A stretch of 64,000 nt of DNA from a virus (IMGVR_UViG_3300020185_000011); one strand, 5' to 3'. Positions 1 through 64,000 are shown, counted from the stretch's first letter. The notes: a model not told the origin generated them from the letters alone. Translations and numbers: made by a program.

Positions 1-28
1 AATAACAGTATTATTAATGGATAATTAA

Positions 29-1459
29 ATGGCAACAGGTTCACAAAAGGTCAAAACACCAGCAGGTTGGAATTCAACCCAAGGTGCATGGGTAAAGACA
101 GGTTCTTCCACATGGAAAGCAGTCGACCAAATCTATATTAAAACCCCTACTGGATGGAACAATGCATCAGGGCAGACTGCAACTCAAATTCCATATCCGT
201 ACATTGCAAATGGACAACAGCCAAACATAAGGGATGCTCAACAACCATATCCATACATTGCAAATGCACAACAACCAAACATAAGAGATGCACAGCAACC
301 GTATCCATATATTGCTAATGCACAAGAACCAAACATAAGGGATGCACAGCAACCATATCCTTATATAGCGAATGCAAGACAACCTTCTACGTACCAACAT
401 AGGAGTCCGTTTACATATGCAAGACAGGGACAAACACCGTTCACTTATCAACATAGGTCTCCATTTACATATAGAAACCCAGTAAATGGTCAAGAACCTA
501 ATATACGTAATAGTCAAACACCTTTCACTTATAGAAATCCAGTGAATGGACAAGAGCCTAATATTAGAGATGCACGTCAACCTTCTACGTATCAGCATAG
601 AAGTCCATTTACGTACAATCATAGGTCACCATTTACGTACAGTCATAGGTCTCCATTCACATATAGAAGTCCAGTGAATGCTCAAGAACCGAACATTAGA
701 GATGCAAGACAACCTGCTACGTATCAACATAGGTCACCGTTAACATATAGTCATAGGTCTCCGTTTACATATCAGCACAGGTCTCCATTTACATATAGAA
801 GTCCTGTAAGCGCACAGGAACCTAATATTAGAAATGCACGTCAACCTGCTACGTATCAGCACAGGTCACCTTTAACATATAGTCACAGGTCACCATTCAC
901 GTATCAACATAGGTCACCATTTACATATAGAAGTCCTGTATCTGCTCAAGAACCTAATATACGTAATGCAAGACAACCTTCTACGTATCAACATAGAAGT
1001 CCGTTAACATATAGTCATAGGTCACCATATACATACAGTCATAGGTCTCCGTTCACTTACAGAAACCCTGTATCTGCTCAACAACCTAATATACGTTCGG
1101 CACAACAACCTAATATACGTTCGGCACAACAACCGTTTACGTTCCAAAATCCGTTTACTTATCGACAACCAAGTAATGCTAGACAACCGAATAATGCAAG
1201 GAACCCATTTACGTATAGAGTACCGTATATTGCAAATGCTAGACAACCGAATAGTGCAAGGAACCCATTCACTTATAGAGTACCTTACATTGCTAATGCA
1301 AGACAACCGAATAGTGCAAGAAGCCCATTCACTTATAGAGTACCTTACATTGCTAATGCAAGGCAACCTGTTATTTCTCAGTCACCGTTTACATATAGTC
1401 ATAGGTCACCATTCAACTACTACTTTACTGGGGGTGGTGGCAACTTCTGTGAGCCATAA
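29..1459 (+). CDS. Pro-periodic repeat protein A (476 aa), probable virion fibre chain
   Basis: Trp-rich 54-aa N-terminus (WVKTGSSTWK), then 55 Pro-initiated units of 6/8/10 aa (PYPYIANAQQ, PNIRDAQQ, PFTYQHRS, PFTYRS, PVSAQE), ending GGGGNFCEP. Lies upstream of a tail-chaperone-like gene and the neck genes. Confidence 0.75.
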   Translation: MATGSQKVKTPAGWNSTQGAWVKTGSSTWKAVDQIYIKTPTGWNNASGQTATQIPYPYIANGQQPNIRDAQQPYPYIANAQQPNIRDAQQPYPYIANAQEPNIRDAQQPYPYIANARQPSTYQHRSPFTYARQGQTPFTYQHRSPFTYRNPVNGQEPNIRNSQTPFTYRNPVNGQEPNIRDARQPSTYQHRSPFTYNHRSPFTYSHRSPFTYRSPVNAQEPNIRDARQPATYQHRSPLTYSHRSPFTYQHRSPFTYRSPVSAQEPNIRNARQPATYQHRSPLTYSHRSPFTYQHRSPFTYRSPVSAQEPNIRNARQPSTYQHRSPLTYSHRSPYTYSHRSPFTYRNPVSAQQPNIRSAQQPNIRSAQQPFTFQNPFTYRQPSNARQPNNARNPFTYRVPYIANARQPNSARNPFTYRVPYIANARQPNSARSPFTYRVPYIANARQPVISQSPFTYSHRSPFNYYFTGGGGNFCEP

Positions 1460-2752
1460 GCCGATGAAAAACATGACAAGAAATAATATTAAACTAACAG
1501 GAGTTTTAAAGTGCCTATAGGTAATAGACAACAACCTACTATTAAGAACGCACAGCAACCTGTCGCGTCTCAGAATCCGTTCACATATGCAAACAGATAT
1601 CCAGCGAGTGCTCAACAACCTTTTACGTTCCAAGCACCATTTACATATAGTGCAAGATATCCAGCGAGTGCTCAACAACCTTTTACGTTCCAAGCACCAT
1701 TTACATATAGTGCAAGATATCCAGCGAATGGACAGCAACCGTTTACGTTTCAGAATCCGTTTACTTACAGACACCCTATGTCTGCGAGACAACCTAACAA
1801 CGCAAGGAATCCATTTACATACAGTTATAGGTCTCCATTTACGTACAACTATAGGTCACCATTTACATATAGAAGTCCTGTAAATGGTCAAGAACCTAAT
1901 ATACGTTCTGCACAAGAGCCTAATATTAGAAGTCAACAAGAACCTAATATACGTTCTGCACAGACTCCGTTCACTTATCAATATAGAAGTCCGTTCACTT
2001 ATAGAAACCCTGTATCTGCTCAAGAACCTAATATTAGAAACATACAGCAACCTAACATTAGAAGTCAGCAAGAACCTAATATACGTAATAGTCAAACACC
2101 GTTCACTTATCAGCACAGGTCTCCTTTCACTTATAGGAACCCTGTATCTGCACAAGAACCGAACATTAGAGCTGCACAACAACCTAATATTAGAAGTCAA
2201 CAAGAACCTAATATTAGAAACAGTCAAACACCGTTTACGTACAATCACAGGTCTCCATCTACATATAGGAACCCTGTATCTGCTCAAGAACCTAATATAC
2301 GTTCTGCTCAAGAACCTAATATACGTTCTGCACAAGAGCCTAACATTAGGGATGCTCAGACTCCGTTCACTTATCAATATAGAAGTCCGTTCACTTATCA
2401 GAATCCTAGTAATGCACGTCAACCTGCTACATATCAGTACAGGTCACCGTTCACTTATCAGAATCCAGTAAGCGCACAGGAACCTAATATTAGAAATGCA
2501 CAGCAACCGTATCCATACATTGCAGCTGCTCAAGAACCTAATATACGTAATGCACAGACTCCGTTTACTTATCAGAGAACAGGTCAAACACCGTTCACTT
2601 ATCAGCACAGGTCTCCATTCACGTATGCAAGACAGGGTCAAACACCGTTTACGTATCAACATAGAAGTCCGTTCACATATCAAAGAACAGGTCAAACACC
2701 GTTTACGTATCAACACAGAAGTCCATTCACATATGCAAGACAGGGTCAAACC
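191..2752 (+). repeat. Coding modular tandem repeats of 18/24/30 nt units (191-1408 and 1535-2752)
   Basis: Recurrent DNA units such as caagaacctaatatacgt, ccgttcacttat and cataggtcacca, with synonymous variation. Confidence 0.95.
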
Positions 2753-2815
2753 CCCGAAGCAAGATGGGATGGAGTGGTATCACAACAGTGGCCTGCAACC
2801 CCAATTACATCATAG
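1511..2815 (+). CDS. Pro-periodic repeat protein B (434 aa), antiparallel partner of protein A
   Basis: GTG start with AGGAG SD at 1499-1503; 55 Pro-initiated units from the same vocabulary in mirror order; Trp-containing C-terminal tail; followed by a terminator. Confidence 0.75.
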   Translation: MPIGNRQQPTIKNAQQPVASQNPFTYANRYPASAQQPFTFQAPFTYSARYPASAQQPFTFQAPFTYSARYPANGQQPFTFQNPFTYRHPMSARQPNNARNPFTYSYRSPFTYNYRSPFTYRSPVNGQEPNIRSAQEPNIRSQQEPNIRSAQTPFTYQYRSPFTYRNPVSAQEPNIRNIQQPNIRSQQEPNIRNSQTPFTYQHRSPFTYRNPVSAQEPNIRAAQQPNIRSQQEPNIRNSQTPFTYNHRSPSTYRNPVSAQEPNIRSAQEPNIRSAQEPNIRDAQTPFTYQYRSPFTYQNPSNARQPATYQYRSPFTYQNPVSAQEPNIRNAQQPYPYIAAAQEPNIRNAQTPFTYQRTGQTPFTYQHRSPFTYARQGQTPFTYQHRSPFTYQRTGQTPFTYQHRSPFTYARQGQTPEARWDGVVSQQWPATPITS

Positions 2816-2879: not shown

Positions 2880-4460
2880 ATGAAAAATATAAGCACCCTT
2901 GAAGAAGCAAAAGAGTTAATTATCCCACAAGATTGGGACAAACTAAGAGACCAAGATAGAAGACACATTGGTAATTTCCATCTAGGTTCATTTAATATAG
3001 AACCAGGCTTTAGTAAAACTAGTGAAACATATAAAATTCTAGACTGGTTATTCAAAGAGATTCTTCCACCTGTAAAAATTGCAAAGTGGTCAGACTTTGA
3101 ATACCTAAGAAAGGAAAATAGATTTGGTGGGTTCAATGGTTTGAGAAATGAATCAGTAACCTATCACAAGTTCCTACCAAGAGGTTATGCAGAGAAACCT
3201 AGAAAGGTTATCCCAGGCGTAGCAGGTATGGATATGAAAGATGCTGATGGATATGTCGATATAGACACATTAATCGATTGGGATACCGTTGAAAATAGAG
3301 ACCAAAGTGCAGAAGGGTCATTACTATCGATGTATTATCATGGTGCAAAAGCACATTGGTTAATTCAAAGTATTCAAGAGGAAGGTCTTAGAGCTCCTAT
3401 TCAAGGATATGTTATCAGTCATGGTATTACTGGTAATAATGTAGAACCAACTTATACATTTAGAATACATCCAGGCTCTATTAGGAGTGGTGTGTTTGAA
3501 GAATTGAATGATAATGATATGGAAATTATGGTAATAGATAATTTTGATGTCGTGAAAGTTGAACCATCAAGCCTAGACGATGTGTTAGAAATGTGGTATA
3601 ATAAGTTAACGAGATTAGGTAAAGCATATCATTGTTCATTTACGTATGTTGATGGATGTATTGAATACAATACTGCATTGATGGACTTAGATTTCAGAGA
3701 AGAAGTACATGCATTCAACAAACAAGTCTTTGAACTTGCAAAGGGTAAACCCCTAACAATTTATATTGGACATGATAGTAGGCATGGAGATTTGTCTAAG
3801 TGTTCTAAGTTTGCAATCCTAGAAAGTATTAAAAGTGGATTCGGTAAAGGCTGGATGCACGACCAAGTTAAATGGGAACCCGAAGTCAAGATACTTGACA
3901 TTGCTGAGATTCCCGAGTATACTAGAGAGTATGCTAATCAAAGTACTGAATTTACATACAGTAGATTTCTAATACCTTACCTAGAGAACTATGAAGGGTT
4001 TAGTATCTTCATTGATGATGATTTCATCTTCAACAAAAGCATACTACCTATGTTCTACTATCTAAACCCAAACGATGCTGTTGCATGTATTAAATACCCA
4101 CAATACGAACATGATGCAACCAAGTTTGACGGTGAAGTTAATATCGATTATCCAAAGAAGCTGTGGTCTAGTATGATGGTGTTCAACAACGGACATGAAG
4201 ACTGTAAGAAGTTAACACCCGAAGTTGTCAACACATGGACAGGAAAACAGTTACATCAATTCGAATGGACTGATAAGATTTCACCTATACCCGAACACTA
4301 TATCTTTGTGGAAGGGTATGATAATCACGAAGAAAAGTATAATTATAGTGGTATTCACTATACTCGTGGTGGCCCATGGGTAAAAGGCATGGATTATTCT
4401 ACCATAAATAATCTTGAAGACTTTTTAAAAGTGAAAAGAAAGTTGCCAATTGGCGATTAG
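2880..4460 (+). CDS. Glycosyltransferase (GT-A, GT8/CDI-like C-terminal domain) fused to an N-terminal domain with ParB/Srx-like motif
   Basis: IYIGHDSR, STEFTYSRF, DDD (DxD), WSSMMVFN, HYTRGGPW motifs; N-terminal LIQSIQEEGLRAPI...IHPGSIR. True start is taken as ATG 2880, after the terminator and the TAAATA box at 2869-2874. Confidence 0.75.
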   Translation: MKNISTLEEAKELIIPQDWDKLRDQDRRHIGNFHLGSFNIEPGFSKTSETYKILDWLFKEILPPVKIAKWSDFEYLRKENRFGGFNGLRNESVTYHKFLPRGYAEKPRKVIPGVAGMDMKDADGYVDIDTLIDWDTVENRDQSAEGSLLSMYYHGAKAHWLIQSIQEEGLRAPIQGYVISHGITGNNVEPTYTFRIHPGSIRSGVFEELNDNDMEIMVIDNFDVVKVEPSSLDDVLEMWYNKLTRLGKAYHCSFTYVDGCIEYNTALMDLDFREEVHAFNKQVFELAKGKPLTIYIGHDSRHGDLSKCSKFAILESIKSGFGKGWMHDQVKWEPEVKILDIAEIPEYTREYANQSTEFTYSRFLIPYLENYEGFSIFIDDDFIFNKSILPMFYYLNPNDAVACIKYPQYEHDATKFDGEVNIDYPKKLWSSMMVFNNGHEDCKKLTPEVVNTWTGKQLHQFEWTDKISPIPEHYIFVEGYDNHEEKYNYSGIHYTRGGPWVKGMDYSTINNLEDFLKVKRKLPIGD

Positions 4461-19141: not shown

Positions 19142-20446
19142 ATGTTTTTATCAGAAAACTTACAAGAAAAGTGGGAGCCGATTCTAGAACACTCCGATTT
19201 ACCAAAAATCGAAGACAACTACAAGCGTGCTGTTACTGCTGTTATTCTTGAAAACCAAGAGAAGGCCCTTTTCGAAGAGCAAGGAAACTTGGAAGAAGCA
19301 GCACCTTTAAATGCTACTGGAAGCGCGGTTGCAAACTGGAATCCTATTTTGATTTCATTAGTAAGACGTGCTATGCCAAATCTCGTTGCATACGACATTT
19401 GTGGTGTTCAACCAATGACAGGCCCAACTGGACTTATCTTTGCTATGAAAGCAAGATATAACGATGATACTGACGCCGATAGAGCTGCAAAATCAGAAGC
19501 ACTTCATAACGAAGCAAGAACTGATTACTCTGCATCTCCTCAAGGAACAGGTACTTCACTAGGTTCAGACCCAATAGGTGACCCTTTCGACACATCATCT
19601 CCTTCATACGCATCCACTACAAGTGGTGGTATGAGTACTGCTTCTGCTGAAGCATTAGGTGATGGAGCAGGAAATCACTTTGCAGAGATGGCATTCTCAA
19701 TCGAGAAAGCTACTGTCACTGCTAAATCCAGAGCATTAAAAGCTGAGTACACACTCGAACTTGCACAAGACCTCAAAGCAATCCACGGTCTTGACGCAGA
19801 ATCAGAACTTGCAAATATTCTTTCATCAGAAATTCTTGCAGAAATCAACCGTGAAGTTATCAGAAATGTTAACTTACAAGCAAAAACTGGTGCAGCTTCA
19901 ACAGCTTCAGCAGGTACTTTCAACCTAGACGTTGATGCTAACGGTAGATGGTCTGTTGAGAAATTCAAAGGATTATTGTTCCAAATCGAAAGAGAATCAA
20001 ACTTCATCGCTAAAGATACACGTAGAGGAAAAGGTAACTTTATCCTATGTTCATCTGATGTAGCTTCTGCTCTTTCAATGGCAGGTGTATTAGATTACAC
20101 TCCTGCTCTTAACACAAACTTAAACGTTGACGATACTGGTAATACTTTTGCTGGTCTTCTAAACGGAAGAGTTAAAGTATATGTTGACCCATATGCTGGT
20201 GTTGACTACTTAACAGTAGGTTATAGAGGAACTAACCCTTATGATGCTGGTCTTTTCTATTGCCCATACGTTCCATTACAAATGGTTCGTGCAGTAGGTG
20301 AGAACACATTCCAACCAAAAATCGGTTTCAAAACTAGATATGGTATGGTTTCAAATCCATTCGTAGGTGCTACACCTGCTGACGGACTTGCATCCGCTGG
20401 AACTAACCAGTACTACAGAAAGATGGCAGTGTCTAACATTCTGTAA
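19142..20446 (+). CDS. gp23: Major capsid protein
   Basis: GVQPMTGPTGLIFAM, ELAQDLKAIHGLDAE, FQPKIGFKTRYG. Confidence 0.97.
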   Translation: MFLSENLQEKWEPILEHSDLPKIEDNYKRAVTAVILENQEKALFEEQGNLEEAAPLNATGSAVANWNPILISLVRRAMPNLVAYDICGVQPMTGPTGLIFAMKARYNDDTDADRAAKSEALHNEARTDYSASPQGTGTSLGSDPIGDPFDTSSPSYASTTSGGMSTASAEALGDGAGNHFAEMAFSIEKATVTAKSRALKAEYTLELAQDLKAIHGLDAESELANILSSEILAEINREVIRNVNLQAKTGAASTASAGTFNLDVDANGRWSVEKFKGLLFQIERESNFIAKDTRRGKGNFILCSSDVASALSMAGVLDYTPALNTNLNVDDTGNTFAGLLNGRVKVYVDPYAGVDYLTVGYRGTNPYDAGLFYCPYVPLQMVRAVGENTFQPKIGFKTRYGMVSNPFVGATPADGLASAGTNQYYRKMAVSNIL

Positions 20447-31720: not shown

Positions 31721-32273
31721 ACATTTAAGAACAGTTGGTGACGGTTCTGATTATCGTGCTATAGACTTTTGTCACATAAAGACTCCATGGGTTCGTGATA
31801 TCTTTAGACGTTCTGCACAGGTCTGTACATCCCACATCTTTAAAGAAACAGGACAACATTTCTATCCCGAAATGTTAGCACTCAATGAATGGGACATAGG
31901 TGGGGTTCAGAACCCACACTTTGATACCTATTCCAACTCAGAAATCAATGAGAATGCTGTTCCCGAAGAGGGAAACTCTAGGGAATGGACGTGTATTCTG
32001 TATCTAAATGACAATTATAACGGTGGACAGACCTATTTTCCACCCAGTGAGACCTTCCCAGTTGGCCATGAGCATCCCCCACAGGCCGGTGAGGGACTTC
32101 TTTTTCAAGGACTATACCTTGAACATGGGGTTTATCCAGTAAGAAGAGGCCCAAGACACACCATATCCATGTGGTTTACAGACATCGAAGATAAGATTAT
32201 CATCGATACACCCATCAATCTAGACCAAAACCAACACCAAATCCAAAGAGAAAACTCCTACATCCCCCGCTAA
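31602..32273 (+). CDS. 2OG-Fe(II) oxygenase, prolyl 4-hydroxylase-like (start uncertain)
   Basis: HFD, LYLNDNYNGG, HGV, RHTISMW. Confidence 0.8.
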   Translation: MKNDKHLQSTSKTVLQPIVIPNLLSQKDSLNLINYHLQHKHLRTVGDGSDYRAIDFCHIKTPWVRDIFRRSAQVCTSHIFKETGQHFYPEMLALNEWDIGGVQNPHFDTYSNSEINENAVPEEGNSREWTCILYLNDNYNGGQTYFPPSETFPVGHEHPPQAGEGLLFQGLYLEHGVYPVRRGPRHTISMWFTDIEDKIIIDTPINLDQNQHQIQRENSYIPR

Positions 32274-32563: not shown

Positions 32564-34960
32564 ATGACTGAGACAAAAAGAAACCAAAAAGACCAACTTG
32601 CCAAACTAATGGCAACCGAGAACATTACTATTGTTCATAAACCAATACCAACTGCATACTTCGATGTAAAGAATAGGATACTTGCTTGTCCTACTTTCAA
32701 AGATGATATCAGTGACGAACTTTATGACTTGTTCATGGGTCACGAAGTTGGACATGCATTGAATACACCTTACGAGGGACTTCATAATGCATTGACTAAA
32801 AACAAAACACTCAAAGGATATCTCAACGTTGTTGAAGATGTCAGAATTGAGAAAGCAATCAAAAACAAATTCCAAGGATTGAGAAAATCTTTCTACACTG
32901 CATACAATGAGTTGATGGAAAAAGATTTCTTTGGTCTTAAAGGTAAAGACTTAAACACACTTTCTTGTATTGATAAAATCAACTTGATTACTAAGTGTGG
33001 TTCTAGGGTTCAAATTGAGTTGACCGACCAAGAGCAGAAGTTCTTGGACATGGCAGAAGCCTGTGTCACTTGGGAAGACGTTGAAGTTTGTGCTGAAGAA
33101 ATTTACAACTGGTCAAAAGAAAATGAGACTAGGGATGAGAGTGACGAAGCAATCGTTCCTAAAATGTTTCAACTTGATGATGAAGACCTTGAAGATGAAG
33201 ACATGGAAGGTGAAGATTCAGATGGTGGTGAAGAGTATGAAGATAATTACGAAGATGGTTCTTCAGACGAAGACGATTCAGAAGATGATGAAGACAAACT
33301 TCCCGAAGCACCCGAGTATGGTGAGGGCAACCAAGACATAGAAGGTGACGAAGACGAAGTAGAAGAAGAAGAGAAGTCTGAGAAAAAAACTACTGGAACT
33401 TCTAAAGAAGGTGGTGTTGCAAGTCCCGAAGATTACGATGGTGAAAATGGTGCTAGAGAATCTATCACTGAACACCATGCACATAACAACGAAGAAATGT
33501 TCCTTGAAGATAGCCCTGCTTGGAGAGAGCAAATCAATCTAAGAGATACTTTCAAGAACAACGATATGGATATTATTATTGGTCACAACCAAGTGTTATC
33601 AGACTGGAAAAAATACTTCAACGAGTATGCTAAGAACAACACTTCAAAAGAATTTGAACACAACATGTCAAAAATCCAGTTCACTGCCAAGAAACTTATT
33701 GACAAGAACAAGAAGATTGTTGCTCACATGGTTAAAGAATTCGAAATGAAGCAGACTGCACAAAGAAGTGTTAAAGCTTTCAGTGGTAAAACTGGTAAGT
33801 TGGATATGAACAAACTTGCAAAGTACCAAATCGTTGATGATGTTTTCAAGAGAGTTACTTACTTGCCTGATGGACAGAATCACGGTCTGAATGTTTTACT
33901 TGACTGGAGTGGTTCAATTTCAAACAGTTGTGCTGAGTTACTGGAACAAGCAATTATCCTTTCAGAGTTCTGCAGAAAAGCAAACATCCCTCACAGAGTT
34001 TACCTTTTCTCTGATGCATATCAGAGAGGTGAGTGGAGTTCAATGGGTGACGAAGGTTTCCTAGTTGAATTGTTCTCTAACGAAATGAACAACAAGAAGT
34101 ACAAAGAAATGATGGTGAATGTTGCAGCTCTATGGATGTGTCACTTCCTAGGAAAACTAGGTTGGAGAGGTAGTGAGAAAACTGCAAAGGCTCACAATAC
34201 ATTCTATGACTGGGACAGTGGTTTTGCAATTGACCACATTGACCAACCTTACTTTTGGTTCGATACCGATATCAGACCAATGCAGTATAGACTTGGTGGT
34301 ACACCACTTGACCATTGTTTGATTGCCTTGAGAAAAATACTTCCCGAGTTCAACAGTGCTTACGGAGTTGAGAAGTCAATCTTAACAGTTATCACAGATG
34401 GATTCTCACATGGAAGTCCTTGGTTGAGAAGAGATAGTGATGAAAAGTATGCTTGGTGTAAAGAGCAAGGTATTGACGCTTGGGACGTTCAGACTGTCGA
34501 AGAAATCATTGACCCTTTCTCAAACAAAGTATTTGAATACAGTGGTGCAACAAGCCACAGAGGAAGATATTACAACGCTTCTAATTTCAAGAAGACTCAG
34601 AACTTATTGTCATGGTTGTCTAAGACTTGTAACGTCACTGTGACTGGTTACTTTGTTTTAGACAAGAAGAGAGATATGGGTGACCTTATGGGATTCACTT
34701 CTTTAAAAGATACATGGTGGGATAACGACAGACAAATCTGGGCTGAGATTAGAAAGAATGGATTGGTTGTTGACTGTCACGGCTACAACAAAATGTTTTT
34801 GACTGCAACTTCTTCACTTGGTGTTGATGGTTCAGACGAATTAGATGATGATTTGGTTGATGCCAAAAAGTCAAGAGTGTTGGCTGCTTTCAAAAAGAAT
34901 CAGAAAGCAAAAACAACTTCAAGGTTTTTAACAAATGAGTTTATAAAGGAGATATCATGA
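32564..34960 (+). CDS. HEXXH metallopeptidase-like + acidic linker + vWA protein (CobT-like partner)
   Basis: HEVGH, NVVEDVRIE, D/E-rich linker, MIDAS DWSGS, GGTPL, VITDG. Confidence 0.8.
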   Translation: MTETKRNQKDQLAKLMATENITIVHKPIPTAYFDVKNRILACPTFKDDISDELYDLFMGHEVGHALNTPYEGLHNALTKNKTLKGYLNVVEDVRIEKAIKNKFQGLRKSFYTAYNELMEKDFFGLKGKDLNTLSCIDKINLITKCGSRVQIELTDQEQKFLDMAEACVTWEDVEVCAEEIYNWSKENETRDESDEAIVPKMFQLDDEDLEDEDMEGEDSDGGEEYEDNYEDGSSDEDDSEDDEDKLPEAPEYGEGNQDIEGDEDEVEEEEKSEKKTTGTSKEGGVASPEDYDGENGARESITEHHAHNNEEMFLEDSPAWREQINLRDTFKNNDMDIIIGHNQVLSDWKKYFNEYAKNNTSKEFEHNMSKIQFTAKKLIDKNKKIVAHMVKEFEMKQTAQRSVKAFSGKTGKLDMNKLAKYQIVDDVFKRVTYLPDGQNHGLNVLLDWSGSISNSCAELLEQAIILSEFCRKANIPHRVYLFSDAYQRGEWSSMGDEGFLVELFSNEMNNKKYKEMMVNVAALWMCHFLGKLGWRGSEKTAKAHNTFYDWDSGFAIDHIDQPYFWFDTDIRPMQYRLGGTPLDHCLIALRKILPEFNSAYGVEKSILTVITDGFSHGSPWLRRDSDEKYAWCKEQGIDAWDVQTVEEIIDPFSNKVFEYSGATSHRGRYYNASNFKKTQNLLSWLSKTCNVTVTGYFVLDKKRDMGDLMGFTSLKDTWWDNDRQIWAEIRKNGLVVDCHGYNKMFLTATSSLGVDGSDELDDDLVDAKKSRVLAAFKKNQKAKTTSRFLTNEFIKEIS

Positions 34961-40155: not shown

Positions 40156-40189
40156 GGCGTATAAGAAACCTAAAAGAATAAATAATTGC

Positions 40190-44021: not shown

Positions 44022-44029
44022 GAGAATCT

Positions 44030-44176: not shown

Positions 44177-44195
44177 TAAGAGAATTTGAAGAATT

Positions 44196-45100: not shown

Positions 45101-45101
45101 A

Positions 45102-48434: not shown

Positions 48435-49712
48435 ATGATGAGTGATAATAAATATTTTCAATACAACCTAGAAGACCTTCACCGAAACAGTGAAAGTAAA
48501 CAGTTTAACTACATTACTTTCTTTGCTGGTGGTGGGGGTTCTTCATGTGGTTACAAACTAGCTGGTGGTGATGTAAAATACATGAATGAATTTCAACAGA
48601 TTCATGTCGACACCTACCTAGAAAATTTCCCTAATACAGTTCATGAATGTAGAGACATCAAAGAAGTCACTGCAGAAGGAATCATGGAGCTGACTGGACT
48701 TAAAAAATACGAATTAGATATCATGGATGGGTCACCACCTTGTCCACCATTTTCTATGGCAGGTTCCAAGAAAGAAGGATGGAACCAAGAGAAGATGGCA
48801 TATGGTATGAAACAACAGAACATCGAAGACCTTACATGGGAAATGATTAGGATTGCCGAAGGGTTGATGCCTAAAGTTATAGTATGTGAGAACGTGAAGG
48901 GTCTCTCGATGGACTATGCAAGAGACCATCTAAACAAGATGGTAAATGATTTTGAAGCACTAGGATACTCAGTGACTTGGAAAATCATGAAGGGACATGA
49001 ACATGGTGTTCCACAAAAAAGAGAAAGAGTATTCATGGTTGGTGTACGTGATGATGTACTTGAAGGTATTGGAATGCCTTGGATGTGTATGTCTTCAGTC
49101 TTCCCCGACCCAGTTAAAGAATTTGCATCCATTGAAGATGCAATTCAAGATTTAGAAACCGATGAAGAGAACATCAAGGATGCAGCTTATCTAGAAACTG
49201 CAATGAACGAATCTTCAAAGGGACATTGGGTAAATGGTTTCGAACAACATCCCGATGAGAAGTTCAAGGATTGTGGCCCATGTGGTGGAGTTACTCCTGT
49301 ACTACATGAGAGAGACAATCAAGCATATGTTTCTATTGGAGACCATATTGTTAAACCTTGGTTTCAAGAACAGATTAAGAACGGACACGTACAACCCGAA
49401 GATGAAAAACATTCTTACTACATGTCAAGAATTGTTCCTAAACATCTACCAGCTCACTCATTGACTGAACAGGGTTGTCAACCAAAATTTATGGGTGGTA
49501 ATCATTTCCACCATGGTGGTAAGAGAATCTACACACCAAAAGAAATGGTGAGATTAATGACTCTACCAAATGATTATAAAATGACTGGTGATTACAACGA
49601 CAAGGGTGCAAGAATTGGATTGATGGTAGCACCACTATGTATGTACTACTTAGTTGAAAACATCAAAGGACAAATATTAGAACCATGGAATTCACTGCAA
49701 CAAAAGACTTAG
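48435..49712 (+). CDS. DNA (cytosine-5) methyltransferase
   Basis: FAGGGG (motif I), GSPPC (IV), ENV (VI), QKRERVF (VIII); promoter TTGACA 48399 -N18- TATAAT 48423. Confidence 0.9.
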   Translation: MMSDNKYFQYNLEDLHRNSESKQFNYITFFAGGGGSSCGYKLAGGDVKYMNEFQQIHVDTYLENFPNTVHECRDIKEVTAEGIMELTGLKKYELDIMDGSPPCPPFSMAGSKKEGWNQEKMAYGMKQQNIEDLTWEMIRIAEGLMPKVIVCENVKGLSMDYARDHLNKMVNDFEALGYSVTWKIMKGHEHGVPQKRERVFMVGVRDDVLEGIGMPWMCMSSVFPDPVKEFASIEDAIQDLETDEENIKDAAYLETAMNESSKGHWVNGFEQHPDEKFKDCGPCGGVTPVLHERDNQAYVSIGDHIVKPWFQEQIKNGHVQPEDEKHSYYMSRIVPKHLPAHSLTEQGCQPKFMGGNHFHHGGKRIYTPKEMVRLMTLPNDYKMTGDYNDKGARIGLMVAPLCMYYLVENIKGQILEPWNSLQQKT

Positions 49713-50686
49713 GATTTAAAGAAACATTTAAGAAATGGAACGGTAAGTATCTTACTGAAGATTCTTATGACACTGTTATCTCATCCATTGGTGTAGAAGA
49801 TGATACTATTAAAATATACAAACCTCATGGTACACTCATGGGGGAAACTTTACTTGCATGTATAGTAAAGAAAGCATACAAAGGTAAAACTTATAGAACA
49901 GTTAAAGACACTTTGTTCTCTATAGATGATACATCTACAATGAGAGCAAATGCAGCCGGGCCTATCGACCACGAAGAAATGAAAGCAAAAGGATTAATCG
50001 AAGGTAAAGACTATGTCCTAAGAACTCCAAACAGTTATTATCCATTAAAGAAGAACGGTGAGTTCAATCGTATTGCAGAAGCAAATGAGATTCATTCAGT
50101 TCTAATCGGGTATAAACGTGGCAGATTCACAGGAATGATTAAGGCAAGTGGTTGGATGGATAAGAAAGCAAACAAAGAAAAGTTTGAAACCCTTCAACAG
50201 ATTGCACAAGTAAATGAACAAGCATTAAAGACTGCAGTTCCCGAGATATGGAAGATGCAAAGAACATTTGCAGATGAATGTATAGAAGAGAAATACCATA
50301 TTGGTGGAGCTCCTATGACAGCGTTATCTGCAAACAAATATTCAACTGGTGGGACTGCAAAGATGTCTGCACATTTGGATGGTAAAGATTTAGAGTTCGG
50401 AATGACAACTATGTGTGTCTTCCGTATTGGAGAATTTGGGGGTGCATACTTATGTTTCCCTAGATATGGTATTGCTATTGAAGCAGATGATGGAGACGTA
50501 CTGATTGCAGATTCAAATGAATTGCACGGTGTATCACCTATCACTGGTGAAGGAGTAAGGTTATCATGTGTTGCATATTGTGATGAACATGTTGCAACTA
50601 AAGGGAGAGCTGGAAAGACTGAGAATCCTATCGGCCCTCATGCTGGAAAGTATGAGGAGAAAGGTTCACTTGACAGCTTTTTCTAG
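49685..50686 (+). CDS. TET/JBP-family 2OG-Fe(II) dioxygenase
   Basis: N...AHLDGKD, GGAYLCFP, GDVLIAD..ELHG, RLSCVAY; overlaps the C5-MTase gene. Confidence 0.8.
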   Translation: MEFTATKDLGFKETFKKWNGKYLTEDSYDTVISSIGVEDDTIKIYKPHGTLMGETLLACIVKKAYKGKTYRTVKDTLFSIDDTSTMRANAAGPIDHEEMKAKGLIEGKDYVLRTPNSYYPLKKNGEFNRIAEANEIHSVLIGYKRGRFTGMIKASGWMDKKANKEKFETLQQIAQVNEQALKTAVPEIWKMQRTFADECIEEKYHIGGAPMTALSANKYSTGGTAKMSAHLDGKDLEFGMTTMCVFRIGEFGGAYLCFPRYGIAIEADDGDVLIADSNELHGVSPITGEGVRLSCVAYCDEHVATKGRAGKTENPIGPHAGKYEEKGSLDSFF

Positions 50687-50769
50687 ACCTAAATAATAAT
50701 GTATCAACTGGAACGTTTCCTTTTGGACATCAAACGTCAAATCATATCCCCGTGGGATAAGGAGTAAAA

Positions 50770-51906
50770 ATGACAACACAACAACACCTGTCCGCAGGTT
50801 TAAAAAAGAGCTACGATATAGAACTCACCCGAGAACTATGTCCACCCAAAGAAACTTATCAAACTTGTAAATTCAAGAAAAGACTTGTAGTACACAAGGA
50901 TAAGATTTACATCATTGACCCTATTACAGGCGACCCATTGCAACCGAGAGAAGAAATCAATCTCACTCAAAATGTTATTGAGATTAAAACTTCATTCAAG
51001 TACAGAGGTTGGTTACATTCAGAAGAACCATTATTTGTACAAGTCGCTGCTGATGGAAACTTCATTCTAAGAAGTGGATTCAACAGATTCAAAGCTGCAA
51101 CGGAAAGTGGTTGGGAATATCTATTAGTAGATGTGTATGAAGATGCACCAGTCCAAAAGGACAACATTGCATTTAAGTATGTTTGTAACAATACTAACCT
51201 ACCATCTAAACCTAATAAAGATATTGACTTCATTAGAGGTGTAGTAGAAGCGATTGATGCAAATGCAATCAATCAAGAAGTCGAAGAAGAGATAATCTCA
51301 TTCTTAAAACAAATCACATCAACAGATGATGGTATGCGTTTAAAGACAGATGAAGAGATTGTCAATTATGTCGATGTAACAGAAGTAAATGACGATGGTT
51401 CAGAGAGTACTACTCAAGAACTATCAACTTCATGTTTACTATATAAGGTCTACAGACAGAGAGGAAAGAACAGAAACATTCTACCGTTAGATGGTAAATA
51501 TGCAAACGAAATTCTTAACAAACTTGGAAAGGGATGGGCTGGAGCAAGAAACAAAGATGTAACTGAGTTAGGTTATTGTTTTGAGAAAGGGAATAGTCTA
51601 CACAGAATATTGTGGGATGGTTTAAAACTTTATGGTAAGTATCAATCACCAATCATGTTATATGGATATGTTGAGAACCCATCATCAATGACTTTAAAGT
51701 CTGATAGAGCAGAAACATTTGCAAGATACGAGTGGTTCATAGAAGAATGTGTAAGAAGATTTACGGATTCTCTTGACTATCATAAGATGGGACTTAACTT
51801 CATGGAACTTGAATGGAAGTTCAGAGAAATCTTTCAGTGGGGTGGATTCATACCTCAAGATAAAACACCACATTGTGATGAAACTGGAAGGATAATACAA
51901 CTATGA
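50770..51906 (+). CDS. ParB/Srx-like N-terminal domain protein
   Basis: QPR...SFKYRGW...PLFV...LRSGFNRFKAA. Confidence 0.55.
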   Translation: MTTQQHLSAGLKKSYDIELTRELCPPKETYQTCKFKKRLVVHKDKIYIIDPITGDPLQPREEINLTQNVIEIKTSFKYRGWLHSEEPLFVQVAADGNFILRSGFNRFKAATESGWEYLLVDVYEDAPVQKDNIAFKYVCNNTNLPSKPNKDIDFIRGVVEAIDANAINQEVEEEIISFLKQITSTDDGMRLKTDEEIVNYVDVTEVNDDGSESTTQELSTSCLLYKVYRQRGKNRNILPLDGKYANEILNKLGKGWAGARNKDVTELGYCFEKGNSLHRILWDGLKLYGKYQSPIMLYGYVENPSSMTLKSDRAETFARYEWFIEECVRRFTDSLDYHKMGLNFMELEWKFREIFQWGGFIPQDKTPHCDETGRIIQL

Positions 51907-52439
51907 TTATCATGGTTGGTGGAGTTCCATGTTCGGGAAAGTCAACTCTCATGAGAAGACTTATCTCTAGGTTAGATGAACCCAACCTAATTGAACCGAT
52001 GAAACTATTTAAGTGCCAAGAACATGGTGACGTATTAGTAGTCGGTCAATATCCCGAGGGAGAGACATTCGGTGGAACTGATAAGCTCTCTCACGGTTCT
52101 ATACCACAATTTAGAGAATTCATTGAGTGGGCAAACATTGCATATAAACATGTATTAATCGAAGGTGATAGATACTTTCGAGGTAAGGATATAGAATGGT
52201 TAATAGACAATCACGAAGCACGCGTTTACGTACTAACAGTAGAGTTATCGGAAGAACACAATCGTCACGCAGAACGTGGAGACACACAGTCCGAAGTGTG
52301 GTTGAAAGGGAGACGGAGTCAGATAAACAACATATTAACAAACATGAATCTACTAGGACAATTGCAGATTCGTGATAACAATTCTATAGAGACTTCTATG
52401 AAAATTGAGGAAGAAATATATGACAGAATTATTTCATAA
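51903..52439 (+). CDS. P-loop nucleotide kinase
   Basis: GGVPCSGKST, GTDKLS, IEGDR, lid RHAERG. Confidence 0.7.
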   Translation: MIIMVGGVPCSGKSTLMRRLISRLDEPNLIEPMKLFKCQEHGDVLVVGQYPEGETFGGTDKLSHGSIPQFREFIEWANIAYKHVLIEGDRYFRGKDIEWLIDNHEARVYVLTVELSEEHNRHAERGDTQSEVWLKGRRSQINNILTNMNLLGQLQIRDNNSIETSMKIEEEIYDRIIS

Positions 52440-52743: not shown

Positions 52744-52888
52744 ATTTAGGCTAACAGCCGACGAGGTAGAGGAAGGACAGGAGATGTATGTTTTATCCTG
52801 TGAAGAAGGAATGCTTGACGCACTCAAAGGTGCTTACGCCGAATACACATGGGTAGAGAAGACTACTGAACCACCTACCCCCGAATAA
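52724..52888 (+). CDS. 54-aa acidic hypothetical protein, absent from the ORF track
   Basis: GGAG SD; fills the gap before the lysozyme gene. Confidence 0.45.
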   Translation: MALEYHKFRLTADEVEEGQEMYVLSCEEGMLDALKGAYAEYTWVEKTTEPPTPE

Positions 52889-52904
52889 CAATAAGGATTA
52901 ATCA

Positions 52905-53360: not shown

Positions 53361-53619
53361 CCCTATCAAATGTCTTCGTTTAGAAAACGGAGATGTCGTT
53401 ATTGGTAAAGTAACAGAAAAATTATTCAAGTACGTGGTAGAAGAAGCACATGCTTGTATTGTTGAGATTCAAGGTGGCCAAATGGAAGTAGGTCTAGCTC
53501 CATGGATACCTTATGCAAAAGACTATACTTTTGATATTTCTAAAGTCAGAGTAGTGTCTTGTTTTGAACCTAGACCAAACCTTGCACAAAACTACAAGGT
53601 GTTAACTGGAAATAAATAA
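53353..53619 (+). CDS. Hypothetical protein (Sm-like)
   Basis: LRLENGDVVIG, GLAPWIPY. Confidence 0.6.
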   Translation: MSNPIKCLRLENGDVVIGKVTEKLFKYVVEEAHACIVEIQGGQMEVGLAPWIPYAKDYTFDISKVRVVSCFEPRPNLAQNYKVLTGNK

Positions 53620-53620
53620 A

Positions 53621-53842
53621 GTGGCAGATATATTAAGAGCATTAGAAAAGAAGTACGAAGGTGATATTGCAGTACACACTGCAAACATTCAAGTCTACCA
53701 AGAAAACCCAGCAGGTATCGGAGACCATTCTGATATCGTTCAGGCAGTAGATGCAGAAGTTGAGAAACTTGCAGATGCTCAAGATAAGCTAAAATCAGTA
53801 AAAGAATTACTACATCCAACCAAAAAAACACTTGTAGAATAG
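53621..53842 (+). CDS. Conserved T4-like hypothetical protein
   Basis: NPAGIGDHSDI motif; GTG start. Confidence 0.6.
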   Translation: MADILRALEKKYEGDIAVHTANIQVYQENPAGIGDHSDIVQAVDAEVEKLADAQDKLKSVKELLHPTKKTLVE

Positions 53843-53866
53843 ACCTCTTTCTGTTATAATAACAGT

Positions 53867-56359: not shown

Positions 56360-56367
56360 ATAACGTT

Positions 56368-56790
56368 ATGGCATACTCAAAAGAAGTAGTTCAAAGATTT
56401 GAAGCAGTACTTGCAAACCCCGAAAAACATTCCGTAGGTCGATTAGACAAAGACGACCCACATGTTGCAACAGGTCTTGCAGGCGCACCCGCCTGTGGTG
56501 ATGTAATGCAATTACAACTATTACTGGACGATGATGAAAGAATCATTGACGTAAAGTTTAAAACCTATGGATGTGGAAGTGCAATTGCAAGTTCGTCCAT
56601 GTTTGTTGATATGATGATGGGTAAGACTATCGAAGAAGCTAAACTAATTAAGGATAAGGACATCGCTGATGCGTTAGACCTTCCGCCGATTAAACTTCAT
56701 TGTTCTGTTCTTGCTGAAGACGCAATCAAAAAGGCAATGATTGATTACGACACCAAGTTGGAACATCGCAGACACAACTATCCTAAATAG
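56368..56790 (+). CDS. iscU: Fe-S cluster scaffold
   Basis: GAPACGDVM, FKTYGCGSAIASSS, LPPIKLHCSVLAEDAI. Confidence 0.95.
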   Translation: MAYSKEVVQRFEAVLANPEKHSVGRLDKDDPHVATGLAGAPACGDVMQLQLLLDDDERIIDVKFKTYGCGSAIASSSMFVDMMMGKTIEEAKLIKDKDIADALDLPPIKLHCSVLAEDAIKKAMIDYDTKLEHRRHNYPK

Positions 56791-56794
56791 AACC

Positions 56795-57262
56795 ATGGGA
56801 ACTAAAAACTTTAAACAATGTGAATTTCATGTAAAGGTCAGTAAAATTGTCGACGGCGATACAGTTGATGTCGACATAGACTTAGGGTTCTCAACAGTTT
56901 TAAAGAAACAAAGAGTGCGACTAATGGGTATAGATACACCCGAATCAAGAACAAGAGACCTCGTGGAGAAATTGTTTGGTAAAGCATCTAAAAAACATCT
57001 TACACATCTTCTATCAGAAGGTGATATTACCCTCGTTAGTCACGACAAAGGAAAATTCGGACGCATACTTGGAGAGTTATTTGTTCATAGCGAAGATGAA
57101 TCAATCATCAATGTCAACAGACAAATGATTCTTGACCACCATGCAGTGGAATATACTGGTGAGAATAAAGACACCACAACAGAACGTCACATGGAGCATA
57201 GAAAGCTTCTAATGGAGAAAGGAGTCGTCACTCAAGAACAGATTGACAAGGTGATGTCATGA
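56795..57262 (+). CDS. Thermonuclease (SNase-like)
   Basis: VDGDTVD, RVRLMGIDTPE, GKFGRILG. Confidence 0.85.
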   Translation: MGTKNFKQCEFHVKVSKIVDGDTVDVDIDLGFSTVLKKQRVRLMGIDTPESRTRDLVEKLFGKASKKHLTHLLSEGDITLVSHDKGKFGRILGELFVHSEDESIINVNRQMILDHHAVEYTGENKDTTTERHMEHRKLLMEKGVVTQEQIDKVMS

Positions 57263-62160: not shown

Positions 62161-62174
62161 ATACATATGATATT

Positions 62175-62351: not shown

Positions 62352-62381
62352 ATAATTCTGTAAATACATACGGAGATATAA

Positions 62382-62768
62382 ATGTCAGAACTCACAGACC
62401 TAATTGCTGTTCAACAAGCTACAAAAGCAAAACTAGAGGATAAACTAGATTGGCATAACGGTGTAAACAAAACTTATTTTGTGGGCCAATCCAAATCAGA
62501 AACTTCTCCAGCAGAGTGGACAGGAGCTGGTAGAGCAGGATTCCTACAATGGCATAATGCACAAGGTGTTAACGAAGACGATTTAGACCAACTATTCGTA
62601 GATATGTATGCTGAATATATTGATACTGAAATTGGAGGTGCTAACGCCCTTGAAGTTAATGCAGATTTAGTTACAACAATGCAAGCATCAATCACTTCTT
62701 ATGCAGCCGACATTGCACACCTTCAATCAAGAGTCGATGCTGGTGATACAACTCTAGCAGACAGCTAA
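62382..62768 (+). CDS. Late hypothetical protein
   Basis: Late boxes and GGAG SD upstream. Confidence 0.6.
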   Translation: MSELTDLIAVQQATKAKLEDKLDWHNGVNKTYFVGQSKSETSPAEWTGAGRAGFLQWHNAQGVNEDDLDQLFVDMYAEYIDTEIGGANALEVNADLVTTMQASITSYAADIAHLQSRVDAGDTTLADS

Positions 62769-62819
62769 AAAATACATAAATAGTAGACAAGGACACCAAA
62801 TTGGTGTATAATACCTACT

Positions 62820-64000
62820 ATGAGTGCAAAAAACTTACATTTAGAACATCTAGAAGACGAAATCATCAATCAAGGTATTGATGGTGGTCGTGGTGCAATT
62901 AACTTTCTTCAAGGTCTAAGAGACATGATGAAAGGTCATTCTAACTCTAAAGTTAATATGACTGTTAAGTGGGATGGAGCTCCTGCTATCTTTTGTGGAA
63001 GACATCCCGAGACAAATCAATTCTTTGTTGCAAAGAAATCCCTATTCAATAAGACTCCTTTATTTTATACCTCAGAAGATGAAATAAAGAATAGTCCCGA
63101 CCTAGGTGGCCAACTTAAAGAAAAATTCCTAACCTCATTCAAATACTTATCTAAACTATCTTGGAATACAGTCATGCAAGGTGACTTGATGTACACTAAC
63201 GACAAGAAAACACAGACGATAGATGGTAAGTCGTACATCACTTTCCAACCCAACACAATCCTCTATGCAGTTGATGAAGAATCACAACTTGGTAAAGTAA
63301 TCGCAAACTCTAAGATGGGTATTGTATTTCACACCACATACGAAGGTTCAACTATTGAAGGATTGAGTGCATCATTTGGTGCAAACATATCTAAGTTGGG
63401 AAGTAGCACAGATGTGTGGTTAGATGATGCAACGTATAAAGATGTCAGTGGTAACAGTACAATGACTGCAAAGGAAACGCTTGGATTGACTCAAGAATTG
63501 ACTGCAACAGGTAAAGCATTTCATGGTATCACTAGGAAAGACCTACAGAAGTTTCAAGAAATACAATCAACAATCACAAAGAAGGGTGCTGGTGCATCTT
63601 ATAAGACATACTGCAACTCATTAATCAGACAAGGTAAATTCAATCCAACATTTGACGGATACATTAAACACTTTGACGGTTACTGGAAAGATAAAGTTGT
63701 CGGTGGTGTTAAGACAGAGAAACATAAACTAATCAAAACAGAAATTGGTCAAGACCTTTTAAGAGAGTTGAAAAGTCTTAAAAAGTTTATCACAAATCTT
63801 ACTAGTTTCATGGGTCACTTGGTGTCTGCAAAACAAATCATAATCGTTGCTCTAAATAGAGTAAAGAGCATCGGAACATTCAAGAAAACGGACAAAGGAT
63901 TCGAAGCAGTTAACCCCGAAGGTTATGTTGCAATCGATAGAAGTGGTAAGGCTGTAAAGCTTGTCGACAGAATGGAATTTGCATTTAATAACTTTACAGC
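62820..64000 (+). CDS. Conserved T4-like protein (DUF6267-like) with ligase-type KxDG motif, truncated by the window end
   Basis: Open frame from ATG 62820 to the end: KNLHLEHLED, TVKWDGAPA, QGD, PEGYV, KLVDRMEF. Confidence 0.7.
   Translation, partial: MSAKNLHLEHLEDEIINQGIDGGRGAINFLQGLRDMMKGHSNSKVNMTVKWDGAPAIFCGRHPETNQFFVAKKSLFNKTPLFYTSEDEIKNSPDLGGQLKEKFLTSFKYLSKLSWNTVMQGDLMYTNDKKTQTIDGKSYITFQPNTILYAVDEESQLGKVIANSKMGIVFHTTYEGSTIEGLSASFGANISKLGSSTDVWLDDATYKDVSGNSTMTAKETLGLTQELTATGKAFHGITRKDLQKFQEIQSTITKKGAGASYKTYCNSLIRQGKFNPTFDGYIKHFDGYWKDKVVGGVKTEKHKLIKTEIGQDLLRELKSLKKFITNLTSFMGHLVSAKQIIIVALNRVKSIGTFKKTDKGFEAVNPEGYVAIDRSGKAVKLVDRMEFAFNNFT

Follow-up and report, generated by a model that had tools for sequence, protein, structure and literature searches.

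How can a phage genome be rid of several short restriction-type words and still keep the same words in one particular sequence setting, and does that setting reflect a modification of its own cytosines? The question is raised by a 64,000-nt stretch of phage DNA, called the window below, from the 145,922-bp (~146 kb) record IMGVR_UViG_3300020185_000011. The record is ~80% complete; its source is a marine T4-like phage, and the genome is AT-rich and depleted of CpG and GpC. Expected counts were taken from codon-preserving shuffles in which every protein and the codon usage were kept (n=200 for the window), and unbiased k-mer scans were run alongside for catching avoided words. A site was called shielded when a GC[C/T] step (GCY) lay inside it or abutted it. 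The features are collected in Table 1.

Table 1. Positions of the footprint examples and of the candidate modification genes in the window
Feature	Position	Strand	Remark
Whole-window footprint	1..64000	.	Codon-preserving shuffles, unbiased k-mer scans
CCAGGC, shielded CCWGG	3003..3008	.	Lower strand GCCTGG; one of 23/23
GGCCC, permitted GGNCC form	4371..4375	.	Gly-Pro pair
CCAGAGC, CCWGA without overlapping GpC	19728..19734	+	Abutting GC is GCT on the lower strand
GCCGG	32085..32089	+	Context and shuffle expectation
GCCCAGA, CCWGA	34737..34743	-	GC abutting 5' (GCC context)
C5-cytosine DNA methyltransferase, candidate GCY writer	48435..49712	+	Pfam PF00145, E 2.1e-49
TET/JBP-type 5-methylpyrimidine dioxygenase	49685..50686	+	Pfam PF12851, E 2.5e-13
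GCCGG, the window's other CCGG	49955..49959		
Possible ParB-like protein	50770..51906	+	Sub-threshold ParB_N match, E 0.04
P-loop nucleotide kinase	51903..52439	+	Pfam PF18751 Ploopntkinase3, E 1.2e-7
GGAGG	62634..62638	.	Lower strand CCTCC; no GCY within one base

Avoided and tolerated words

A preliminary description, made by eye, had held that GATC and GGACC/GGTCC are missing, that Gly-Pro is written as GGCCC/GGGCC, that CCWGG and CCGG occur only with a neighbouring GpC and that Pro-Gly relies on the uncommon GGC codon, and the counts bear out each of these points. No GATC occurs in the window against 201 expected (lowest shuffle 178) or in the whole genome against 445, and GGWCC is equally absent (0 against 39 and 0 against 78), while GGSCC exceeds its expectation (31 against 10 over 200 shuffles in the window, 73 against 24 in the genome). 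All 31 GGNCC sites of the window are GGCCC or GGGCC, and the Gly codon is GGC or GGG in 23 of 23 Gly-Pro pairs. Each of the 23 CCWGG sites in the window has the form GCCWGG or CCWGGC, which gives 23 sites with GCY inside against 7.2 expected and none otherwise against about 32-33; genome-wide the figures are 51 shielded against 19.5, and 0 against 69. GGC serves 20 of the 22 Pro-Gly pairs and makes up 7% of Gly codons. Only two CCGG are found in the window, both as GCCGG (2 against 9.2 with GCY inside, 0 against about 30-31 otherwise), and the genome holds 4 shielded against 24 and 0 others against 76. The footprint thus extends beyond the window across the whole record. Under the check that had been proposed, namely shuffles split by GpC overlap, the observed counts were never approached, and the depletion goes beyond codon and composition expectation equally on both strands, as in restriction-site avoidance.

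CCWGA had been described as mostly GCCWGA with four exceptions (167, 19728, 34737 and 44685). Its first part stands; the exceptions do not, as a GC directly abuts each of them and also a fifth CCWGA without an overlapping GpC, at 5039. Window counts for CCWGA/TCWGG are 15 against 19 with GCY inside, 5 against 7.5 when abutted and 0 against 161 with neither; the corresponding genome values for CCWGA are 50 against 46, 19 against 18.5 and 1 against 375, and GC abuts 19 of the 20 genomic CCWGA that lack an overlapping GpC. For some words, then, a GCY one base outside the site exempts too. The exemption tracks the GC dinucleotide and not one flanking base: at CCWGA, C at -1 helps only with G at -2, and G at +1 only with C at +2.

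The k-mer scan added CCTCC/GGAGG, CGWCG, CCGCA, GTGCAC and GCAGCA to the avoided words, and the footprint is stronger than was first stated. CCTCC and CGWCG are likewise present with GC[C/T] inside or abutting, bar rare exceptions (genome-wide, CCTCC 7 against 16 shielded and 1 against 138 with neither; CGWCG 8 against 17 abutted and 1 against 102 with neither). The sole true exception in the window is the GGAGG at 62634..62638, a Gly-Gly pair inside ORF 62382-62768.

Words able to hold or touch only GCA or GCG are absent or avoided (GATC, GGWCC, GTGCAC with 0 against 140, TGCGCA with 0 against 40, and CCGCA), so the implied mark would be GC[C/T] and not every GpC. GCC and GCT each exempt, as seen from CCWGAGC in the source genome and from GCTGCAG in the cultured phage Melnitz (14 against 22.5, vs 0 against 34). 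The same GpC[C/T] specificity has been measured for phage C5-methyltransferase (C5-MT)/TET pairs, in clades I/II of Burke et al. 2021 (PMC8256090). GC-containing palindromes had been called abundant; this is right for TGCA, which is enriched (551 against 352), and AGCT lies slightly below expectation (141 against 172) and is therefore tolerated rather than abundant. Some observations speak against shielding: AGCT is depleted in Melnitz (132 against 384), GCC-flanked CCGG is still ~4-fold depleted (34 against 124), and GCAGCA is avoided on both strands though it always holds GCT. C/T differences at third codon positions, compared with relatives having methylases of at least 88% identity, gave no clear excess at GCY.

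The candidate modification genes and known systems

The methylase and TET genes run parallel and overlap by 28 nt, well within five genes of one another. Aligned to its nearest solved homologue, PDB 8yf3 (E 3.6e-68), the methylase shows motifs I (FAGGGG), IV (SPPC), VI (ENV) and VIII (QKRER), which give it the intact catalytic core of the phage C5-MT/TET (5mYOX) modules. The dioxygenase has HLD and the distal His (HxD...H iron ligands) and the 2OG-binding Arg; a sequence search found no solved relatives of it. The two genes adjoin in all 73 related loci that had sufficient sequence, and in Melnitz. The possible ParB-like product has no PHROG match, and 25 of 71 related loci yielded a homologue; the kinase was detected in 41 of 64. 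Kinases of the Ploopntkinase3 type have been associated with phosphorylating hydroxymethylpyrimidine in DNA.

Searches of the source genome and of complete Melnitz found no gene of the DruA-like, N4/N6, Dam or TGT kind, and the methylase/TET pair is the sole candidate writer present in both. A 7-deazaguanine route (no TGT/DpdA gene) and N4/N6 or Dam-type methylases were set aside for the source genome on this ground. A PF14236-type DruA/Mom-like gene, non-homologous to the candidate writer here, gave no match at E<=1 in the source record or in complete Melnitz, and the same search does recover such genes in HTVC008M, S-CAM9, S-PRM1 and S-SM2; a DruA/Mom-like writer was rejected for the source genome.

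The arrangement is that of the adjacent, co-oriented C5-MT and TET/5mYOX genes from marine viral contigs, whose neighbours across the contigs include redoxin, ParB, P-loop kinase (in some contigs) and lysozyme (PMC8256090); a ParB-like candidate and a kinase are found here. That work dealt with enzyme activity in E. coli and phage genomes were not examined, whereas the present data are an evolutionary genome footprint. The GC motif of CmoX, from the 5-carboxymethylcytosine system CmoX/CmoA/CmoY of Synechococcus phage S-B43, was confirmed on virion DNA and fits the GCY footprint (PMC12783734). CmoX is 35% identical to the source methylase, and PDB 8yf3 appears to be this enzyme. A CmoX-type C5-carboxymethyltransferase was nevertheless rejected: SPPC is shared, but the carboxymethyl-binding Arg R350 (position counted in the 8yf3 alignment) is Leu in the source methylase, and the neighbour gene is a TET here and a ligase in the CmoX system. 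In the relative S-B05 the exemption is present but weaker (CCGG 14 against 68 shielded, vs 9 against 162). A dioxygenase accompanied by ParB-like and kinase genes is a usual picture in thymine dioxygenase pathways, which makes cytosine no more than the probable substrate here; the ParB-dependent thymine dioxygenases of O'Toole et al. 2026 share with this locus the order of 5mYOX, possible ParB-like gene and P-loop kinase (PMC13229309). Those enzymes lack an adjacent C5-MT, whereas here the methylase gene overlaps the dioxygenase gene and ParB_N is matched only at E 0.04; assignment to their clade C1 was rejected.

As in the short-palindrome avoidance of lytic phages, words of 4-6 bp are strongly depleted on both strands with differences between lineages. 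Unlike ordinary avoidance, the depletion is conditional: it is complete only where a sparse modification cannot cover the site, and shielded copies are kept or enriched.

Relatives, control genomes and competing explanations

The rule recurs in Melnitz, which infects OM43 and whose methylase is 54% identical, and in 60 IMG/VR loci (~1 Mb of uncultured relatives, methylases 55-88% identical), all carrying the same gene pair. The 60 relatives hold 196 shielded CCWGG and no unshielded one against 355 expected, and a dose relation is seen, GCCWGGC flanked on both sides being at 56 against 5.7 and sites flanked on one side at 140 against 96. Across this ~1 Mb of related phage DNA, CCWGG, CCGG and GTGCAC never occur exposed and GGWCC hardly ever does. 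In each methylase-bearing identity tier that offered sufficient sequence for testing, a core set (CCWGG, CCGG, GGWCC, CGWCG, GTGCAC) is avoided, and GATC, CCWGA, ACGT, GTAC, CCTCC and GCAGCA vary by lineage. Most of the Kyanoviridae tested, across three different host groups, lack GTGCAC. The core words are common to a clade for which OM43 is the known host, and the tiny genome of OM43 fits poorly with many host restriction systems.

Five cyanophages without a C5-MT and without a DruA-like gene were compared with genomes having either. The five purge CCGG whatever its flank (GCC-flanked 2 against ~265), whereas GCC-flanked CCGG stands at 141 against ~256 in the genomes having a methylase-family or DruA-like gene; among the tested genomes the lifting is seen only where a methylase-family or DruA/Mom-like gene is present. 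S-CAM9, S-PRM1 and HTVC008M have DruA/Mom-like genes and no C5-MT at all, and show a GCC-type exemption (CCGG in S-CAM9, 37 against 63 GCC-flanked vs 0 against 128; in S-PRM1, 32 against 54 vs 0 against 121), so the footprint is not unique to a methylase/TET writer. HTVC008M was dropped as a methylase-less negative control, since it turned out to carry two DruA-like genes and to follow a flank rule of its own, and was moved to the class with another writer; it does not avoid CCWGG or GGWCC, and its surviving GATC are mostly GGATC. S-CRM01, whose methylase homologue has 35% identity, avoids hardly any shieldable words and is therefore uninformative.

Codon usage, amino-acid content or mutation bias has next to no probability as the origin of the pattern. 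The composition of the genome, noted above, would favour such an origin, but it is refuted by the shuffles, by the equality of the two strands and by rare codons being used specifically for the shielded forms. It is also very improbable that there is no modification and that the recognition sequences of the host enzymes are just longer and exclude a G before the site. An extended site can in principle leave flank-dependent survivors, and the GGATC of HTVC008M has this look; against it, at least five unrelated words share one exemption, which works from either strand, inside or one base outside the word, needs the dinucleotide, and has no counterpart in the writer-less phages that avoid CCGG.

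The purged words might instead be targets of the phage lineage's own nucleases, for example those degrading host DNA, with self-protection by avoidance and a GCY mark. The uniform avoidance of the core set, the absence of GTGCAC across host groups and the streamlined genome of OM43, the single known host clade, agree with this, but we hold it unlikely: the remaining avoided words differ between lineages in the way expected of host systems, the related HTVC008M spares CCWGG and GGWCC, and an unsystematic look at the source genome identified no restriction-type nuclease. Since phages without a C5-MT share the exemption, a further alternative is that the shield comes from another, unrecognised factor common to marine T4-like phages, such as a DNA-binding protein or a modification carried by the opposite strand at the G of RGC, with the methylase and TET as bystanders. 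A mark on the C of GCY and one on the G of RGC look alike in sequence, and S-CAM9 and S-PRM1 point the same way. This account appears quite unlikely, as all tested genomes with the exemption carry a methylase-family or DruA-like gene and the five with neither show none, TGT/DpdA, N4/N6 and Dam genes are missing from the source genome, and the GCY context equals that measured for homologous methylases.

Proposed mechanism and its meaning

The most probable reading, and one we consider likely, is that the phage's methylase/TET pair marks GCY and shields overlapping or abutting sites, and that unshielded words were purged. Once its DNA has been replicated, the phage would modify the cytosines of its G-C-C/T steps: 5mC would be made at GCY by the methylase, the overlapping dioxygenase would probably convert it to 5hmC, and the downstream genes, including the kinase, may extend the modification. 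A mark inside a restriction-type word would block the nuclease reading it, and for some words a mark on the neighbouring base pair would do so too. Because the mark would exist only at GCY, selection would have removed every copy of a dangerous word unable to carry or touch it, presumably under host restriction enzymes, and copies needed by the proteins would have been recoded to GCC... or ...GGC. The earlier proposal that the two enzymes modify GpC and shield overlapping sites is supported by the GC-dependent exemption, the relatives, the writer-less controls and the specificity of homologues, except that GCA and GCG do not exempt; from the relatives and from the footprint itself we infer a methylase specific for GCY, the genomic rule of GCC/GCT standing beside the methylation and oxidation at GpC[C/T] typical of such modules.

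Literature searches found no publication describing context-conditional site avoidance, and the Melnitz paper makes no mention of it. In work on these enzymes it has been argued that GpC-limited modification is unlikely to protect genome-wide from host nucleases and may serve other roles (bioRxiv 10.1101/2023.12.21.572611). The footprint answers this doubt from evolution, in that ~1 Mb of phage DNA would have been shaped until GCY marks and site removal between them left next to nothing exposed of CCWGG, CCGG, GTGCAC and GGWCC. Marking GCY alone could suffice because the genome has been rewritten, every dangerous site being marked or gone. We see about an even chance that this is a co-evolved anti-restriction strategy, joining sparse hypermodification to genome-wide recoding, on whose GCC mark at least two non-homologous writers (C5-MT/TET and DruA/Mom-like) converged in marine T4-like phages.

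The footprint predicts the specificity of the source methylase, and Melnitz on OM43 is a cultured phage-host pair in which the GCY prediction is testable. If the reading is true, the specificity of the writer, the reach of the shield (at most 1 bp outside the site) and the restriction repertoire faced by the phage would be readable from sequence alone, and such footprints would offer a route, in uncultured viruses, to DNA modifications that are otherwise hidden and to the contexts of those marks.

Avoided words in the window and its genome

The window corresponds, in reverse complement, to positions 60089-124088 of a 145,922-bp IMG/VR record (completeness about 80% by CheckV) of a T4-like marine myovirus with 38% GC, whose closest cultured relative is the Methylophilales (OM43) phage Melnitz, family Kyanoviridae. 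Nine base differences were found between the window and the full-record sequence, at 30080, 40625-40673 (seven within 50 nt) and 55468. Counts are given as observed/expected, and two nulls were used: Markov expectations, and shuffles in which synonymous codons were permuted while every protein and the overall codon usage were kept.

The by-eye counts of the preliminary description, in which avoided words survived only where a GpC overlaps them, were borne out by a recount of the window, and no codon-preserving shuffle split by GpC overlap came near the observed values. Against these shuffles GATC was 0/201 and GGWCC 0/39, whereas GGSCC was 31/10. CCWGG was 23/7 with GCY (GCC or GCT) inside the site and 0/33 otherwise, CCGG was 2/9 and 0/31 respectively, and CCWGA/TCWGG was 15/19 with GCY inside, 5/7.5 where abutted and 0/161 with neither. 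The whole record behaved in the same way under the shuffles. An unbiased scan of the genome gave further avoided words (CCTCC/GGAGG 8/157, CGWCG 9/120, CCGCA 6/70, GTGCAC 0/23) and compensating enrichments (CCCGA/TCGGG 249/85, GGCCC 73/24, CCAGGC 41/11). Recoding is visible directly in codon choice: as had been proposed, Pro-Gly uses the rare GGC codon in 20 of 22 pairs and Gly-Pro uses GGC or GGG in 23 of 23 pairs of the window. AAAAAA is also depleted genome-wide (156/352 against codon-preserving shuffles).

The sequence context of the exemption and its replication

By preceding base, CCWGA in the genome was 3/160 after A, 13/81 after C, 50/46 after G and 4/151 after T; of the 20 copies preceded by a base other than G, 19 are directly abutted by GC, as gcCCWGA or CCWGAgc, and all nine CGWCG copies have a GpC overlapping or abutting. 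These counts show that the exemption tracks a GC dinucleotide on either strand, inside the word or in the neighbouring base pair. The exempting contexts are GCC and GCT (CCWGAGC holds GCT on the lower strand), whereas neither GCA nor GCG lifts the avoidance. GATC and GGWCC, which can be abutted only by GCG, are absent here; GTGCAC (0/140, pooled) and TGCGCA (0/40) both hold only GCA/GCG; and CCGCA with its internal GCA/GCG is still avoided unless overlapped also by a GCY. A dose effect was found for CCWGG: doubly flanked GCCWGGC is 56/5.7, versus 140/96 for single flanks. The GpC-marking interpretation thus stands in that the exemption needs a GC dinucleotide, but not for every GpC.

Melnitz, cultured on Methylophilales sp. 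H5P1, also has the four-gene cassette, and its methylase shares 54% identity with that of the window. Its GGWCC was 0/65 and GGSCC 60/24, CCWGG was 68/25 shielded and 0/69 otherwise, and CCTCC had 16 shielded or abutted copies and 0/148 otherwise, with CGWCG at 1/80 and GTGCAC at 0/19; CCWGA is not avoided. For CTGCAG only GCTGCAG survives (14/22.5 vs 0/34), and GCTTAAG is the sole surviving form of CTTAAG. Methylase homologues were found in 80 IMG/VR loci, and the rule was upheld in each identity tier. In a pooled set of 1.02 Mb (the window's genome, Melnitz and 60 loci with methylase identity below 90%), CCWGG was 196/103 shielded and 0/355 otherwise, CCGG 34/124 and 0/395, and GGWCC 5/508, while CGWCG was 20/68 when abutted by GCY, 3/54 when touched only by GCA/GCG and 2/396 with no GpC touching. 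The lifting of avoidance at GpC-overlapped sites is therefore confirmed by the window and genome shuffles, Melnitz and the 60 loci. GATC, CCWGA, ACGT, GTAC, CCTCC and GCAGCA are avoided in some lineages and not others, as would follow from encounters with different restriction systems.

The candidate writer of the probable mark

The methylase and TET genes (listed below) have a peroxiredoxin upstream and lysozyme and DNA polymerase downstream; redoxin, ParB, P-loop kinase and lysozyme are among the neighbours of C5-MT/TET pairs in marine contigs (Burke et al., PMC8256090).

Coordinates of the candidate modification genes and other features
Feature	Sequence	Position	Profile match
C5-cytosine methyltransferase	Window	48435-49712	PF00145, E 2e-49
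TET/JBP dioxygenase	Window	49685-50686	PF12851, E 2.5e-13
P-loop nucleotide kinase	Window	51903-52439	PF18751
CHASE2 cyclase (confirmed; inside putative block)	Window	45039-46943	
Putative counterpart of Melnitz block	Window	40179-47247	
CsgF/CsgG/curlin/FecR/CHASE2-cyclase block (annotated)	Melnitz	50731-56876	
DruA-like genes	HTVC008M (KC465899)	86386-86916 and 99793-100128	PF14236

In all of the related loci long enough to be scored (73 of 73), the methylase and TET genes lie side by side; a ParB-like homologue was recovered at 25 of 71 loci and the kinase at 41 of 64. Since the rule is universal in the methylase-bearing group, at most methylase and TET are needed. The pair is the sole candidate writer found in the window's genome, where a search for N4/N6, Dam and TGT genes gave none, and a profile search gave no PF14236 (DruA) match in the window's record or complete Melnitz. 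The GpC[C/T] specificity measured for most TET-paired phage C5-MTs is the exemption context inferred here, and in one clade GCC, GCT and GCG are methylated and GCA is not (PMC8256090).

Among solved structures the methylase is closest to 8yf3 (E 3.6e-68), apparently CmoX of phage S-B43, an enzyme that acts on GC motifs in virion DNA (PMC12783734). Both share the SPPC motif, but in our alignment to 8yf3 the carboxymethyl-binding Arg (R350) is replaced by Leu, so the window's enzyme is more likely an ordinary methylase than a carboxymethyltransferase. SPPC, used to define CmoX carboxymethyltransferases, thus occurs together with this Leu and alone is no marker of carboxymethyl transfer. Thymine-directed dioxygenase pathways are characterised by ParB-like and kinase neighbours (PMC13229309); given such neighbours, both cytosine as the substrate of the window's dioxygenase and the final adduct are putative.

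Among the 11 CCGG-depleted genomes compared, exemption is confined to those with a candidate writer; the five genomes in which neither a C5-MT nor a DruA-like gene was found are cyanophages, and they have lost virtually all CCGG, GCC-flanked copies included. PF14236 matches were found in HTVC008M (two genes), S-CAM9, S-PRM1 and S-SM2, and a C5-MT was searched for in these four and found in none.

Surviving CCGG in CCGG-depleted genomes (observed/expected)
Genome	Candidate writer	GCC-flanked	Unflanked
Window's genome	methylase/TET	4/22	0/72
Melnitz	methylase/TET	15/26-27	0/58
S-B05	CmoX	12/63	9/162
S-CAM9	DruA-like	37/63	0/128
S-PRM1	DruA-like	32/54	0/121
HTVC008M	DruA-like	41/27	9/37
DSL-LC03	none	1/37	1/87
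S-H9-1	none	0/63	0/142
S-RSM4	none	0/56	0/146
S-ShM2	none	1/49	0/128
S-RIM8	none	0/60	0/138

GATC survivors of HTVC008M are mostly GGATC/GATCC (111/139 with G at -1 vs 55/533 with other bases) and do not fit GCY; both of its TCGA sites read GCTCGA, and each of its five CGWCG copies has a G or C next to it.

As a supporting detail from small samples, GpC depletion is seen in the four genomes that encode a methylase-family enzyme (rho 0.64-0.88; 0.74 in the window's genome) and not in three measured genomes without it (0.92-0.99). The loss falls on GCC/GCT (mainly so in the window's genome) and not on GCA. TGCA, the sole GpC tetranucleotide without GCY on either strand, is enriched 1.1-1.6-fold only in methylase-bearing genomes (seven compared; small samples), and 1.6-fold (1341/834) in the window's genome.

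The shield is probably a cytosine modification directed to GCY, which the methylase writes alone or together with the TET.

The purging agent and the meaning of the footprint

Several observations fit less well. CCGG flanked by GCC remains about 4-fold below expectation, and both strands show avoidance of the non-palindromic GCAGCA/TGCTGC (7/97 genome-wide in the unbiased scan, 3 copies versus 32 expected in the window) despite GCT always lying on the lower strand; GCAGC is at a normal level, GCAGCT and GCTGCA are enriched, and GCAGCA avoidance was not seen in Melnitz. AGCT is depleted in Melnitz and not in the window's genome, and the one clean exception in the window is an intragenic GGAGG (62634-62638).

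Host restriction enzymes are the likely purging agent, a reading held with less confidence than that of the shield. The core avoided set is common to the whole clade, and GTGCAC is missing from most tested Kyanoviridae irrespective of the writer gene and of whether the host is OM43, SAR11 or Synechococcus, which leaves room for phage-encoded nucleases in place of host enzymes. The window's genome, Melnitz, HTVC008M, DSL-LC03, S-H9-1 and S-ShM2 have no GTGCAC (14-29 expected in each), and S-CRM01 and S-B05 have it at normal levels. Extreme avoidance of single words was also seen for TTAA (0/785 in S-ShM2), CTAG (0/312 in S-SM2) and GGTACC, absent from 7 of 8 testable marine cyanophages; the eighth, S-CAM9, has 8/44.

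Avoidance of restriction sites and base modification against restriction are textbook phenomena. A preference of phage C5-MT/TET pairs for GpC[C/T] has also been published (PMC8256090). Our literature search found no description of site avoidance that is lifted where a sparse mark made by the phage itself overlaps the site. A 2023 preprint on these enzymes considered genome-wide protection by GpC-limited modification unlikely (bioRxiv 10.1101/2023.12.21.572611); the footprint contradicts this expectation, because recoding would supply the remaining protection. To this the window contributes a case in which the methylase/TET pair is the sole candidate writer, a writer-versus-exemption matrix, and Melnitz as a cultured relative that makes the prediction testable.
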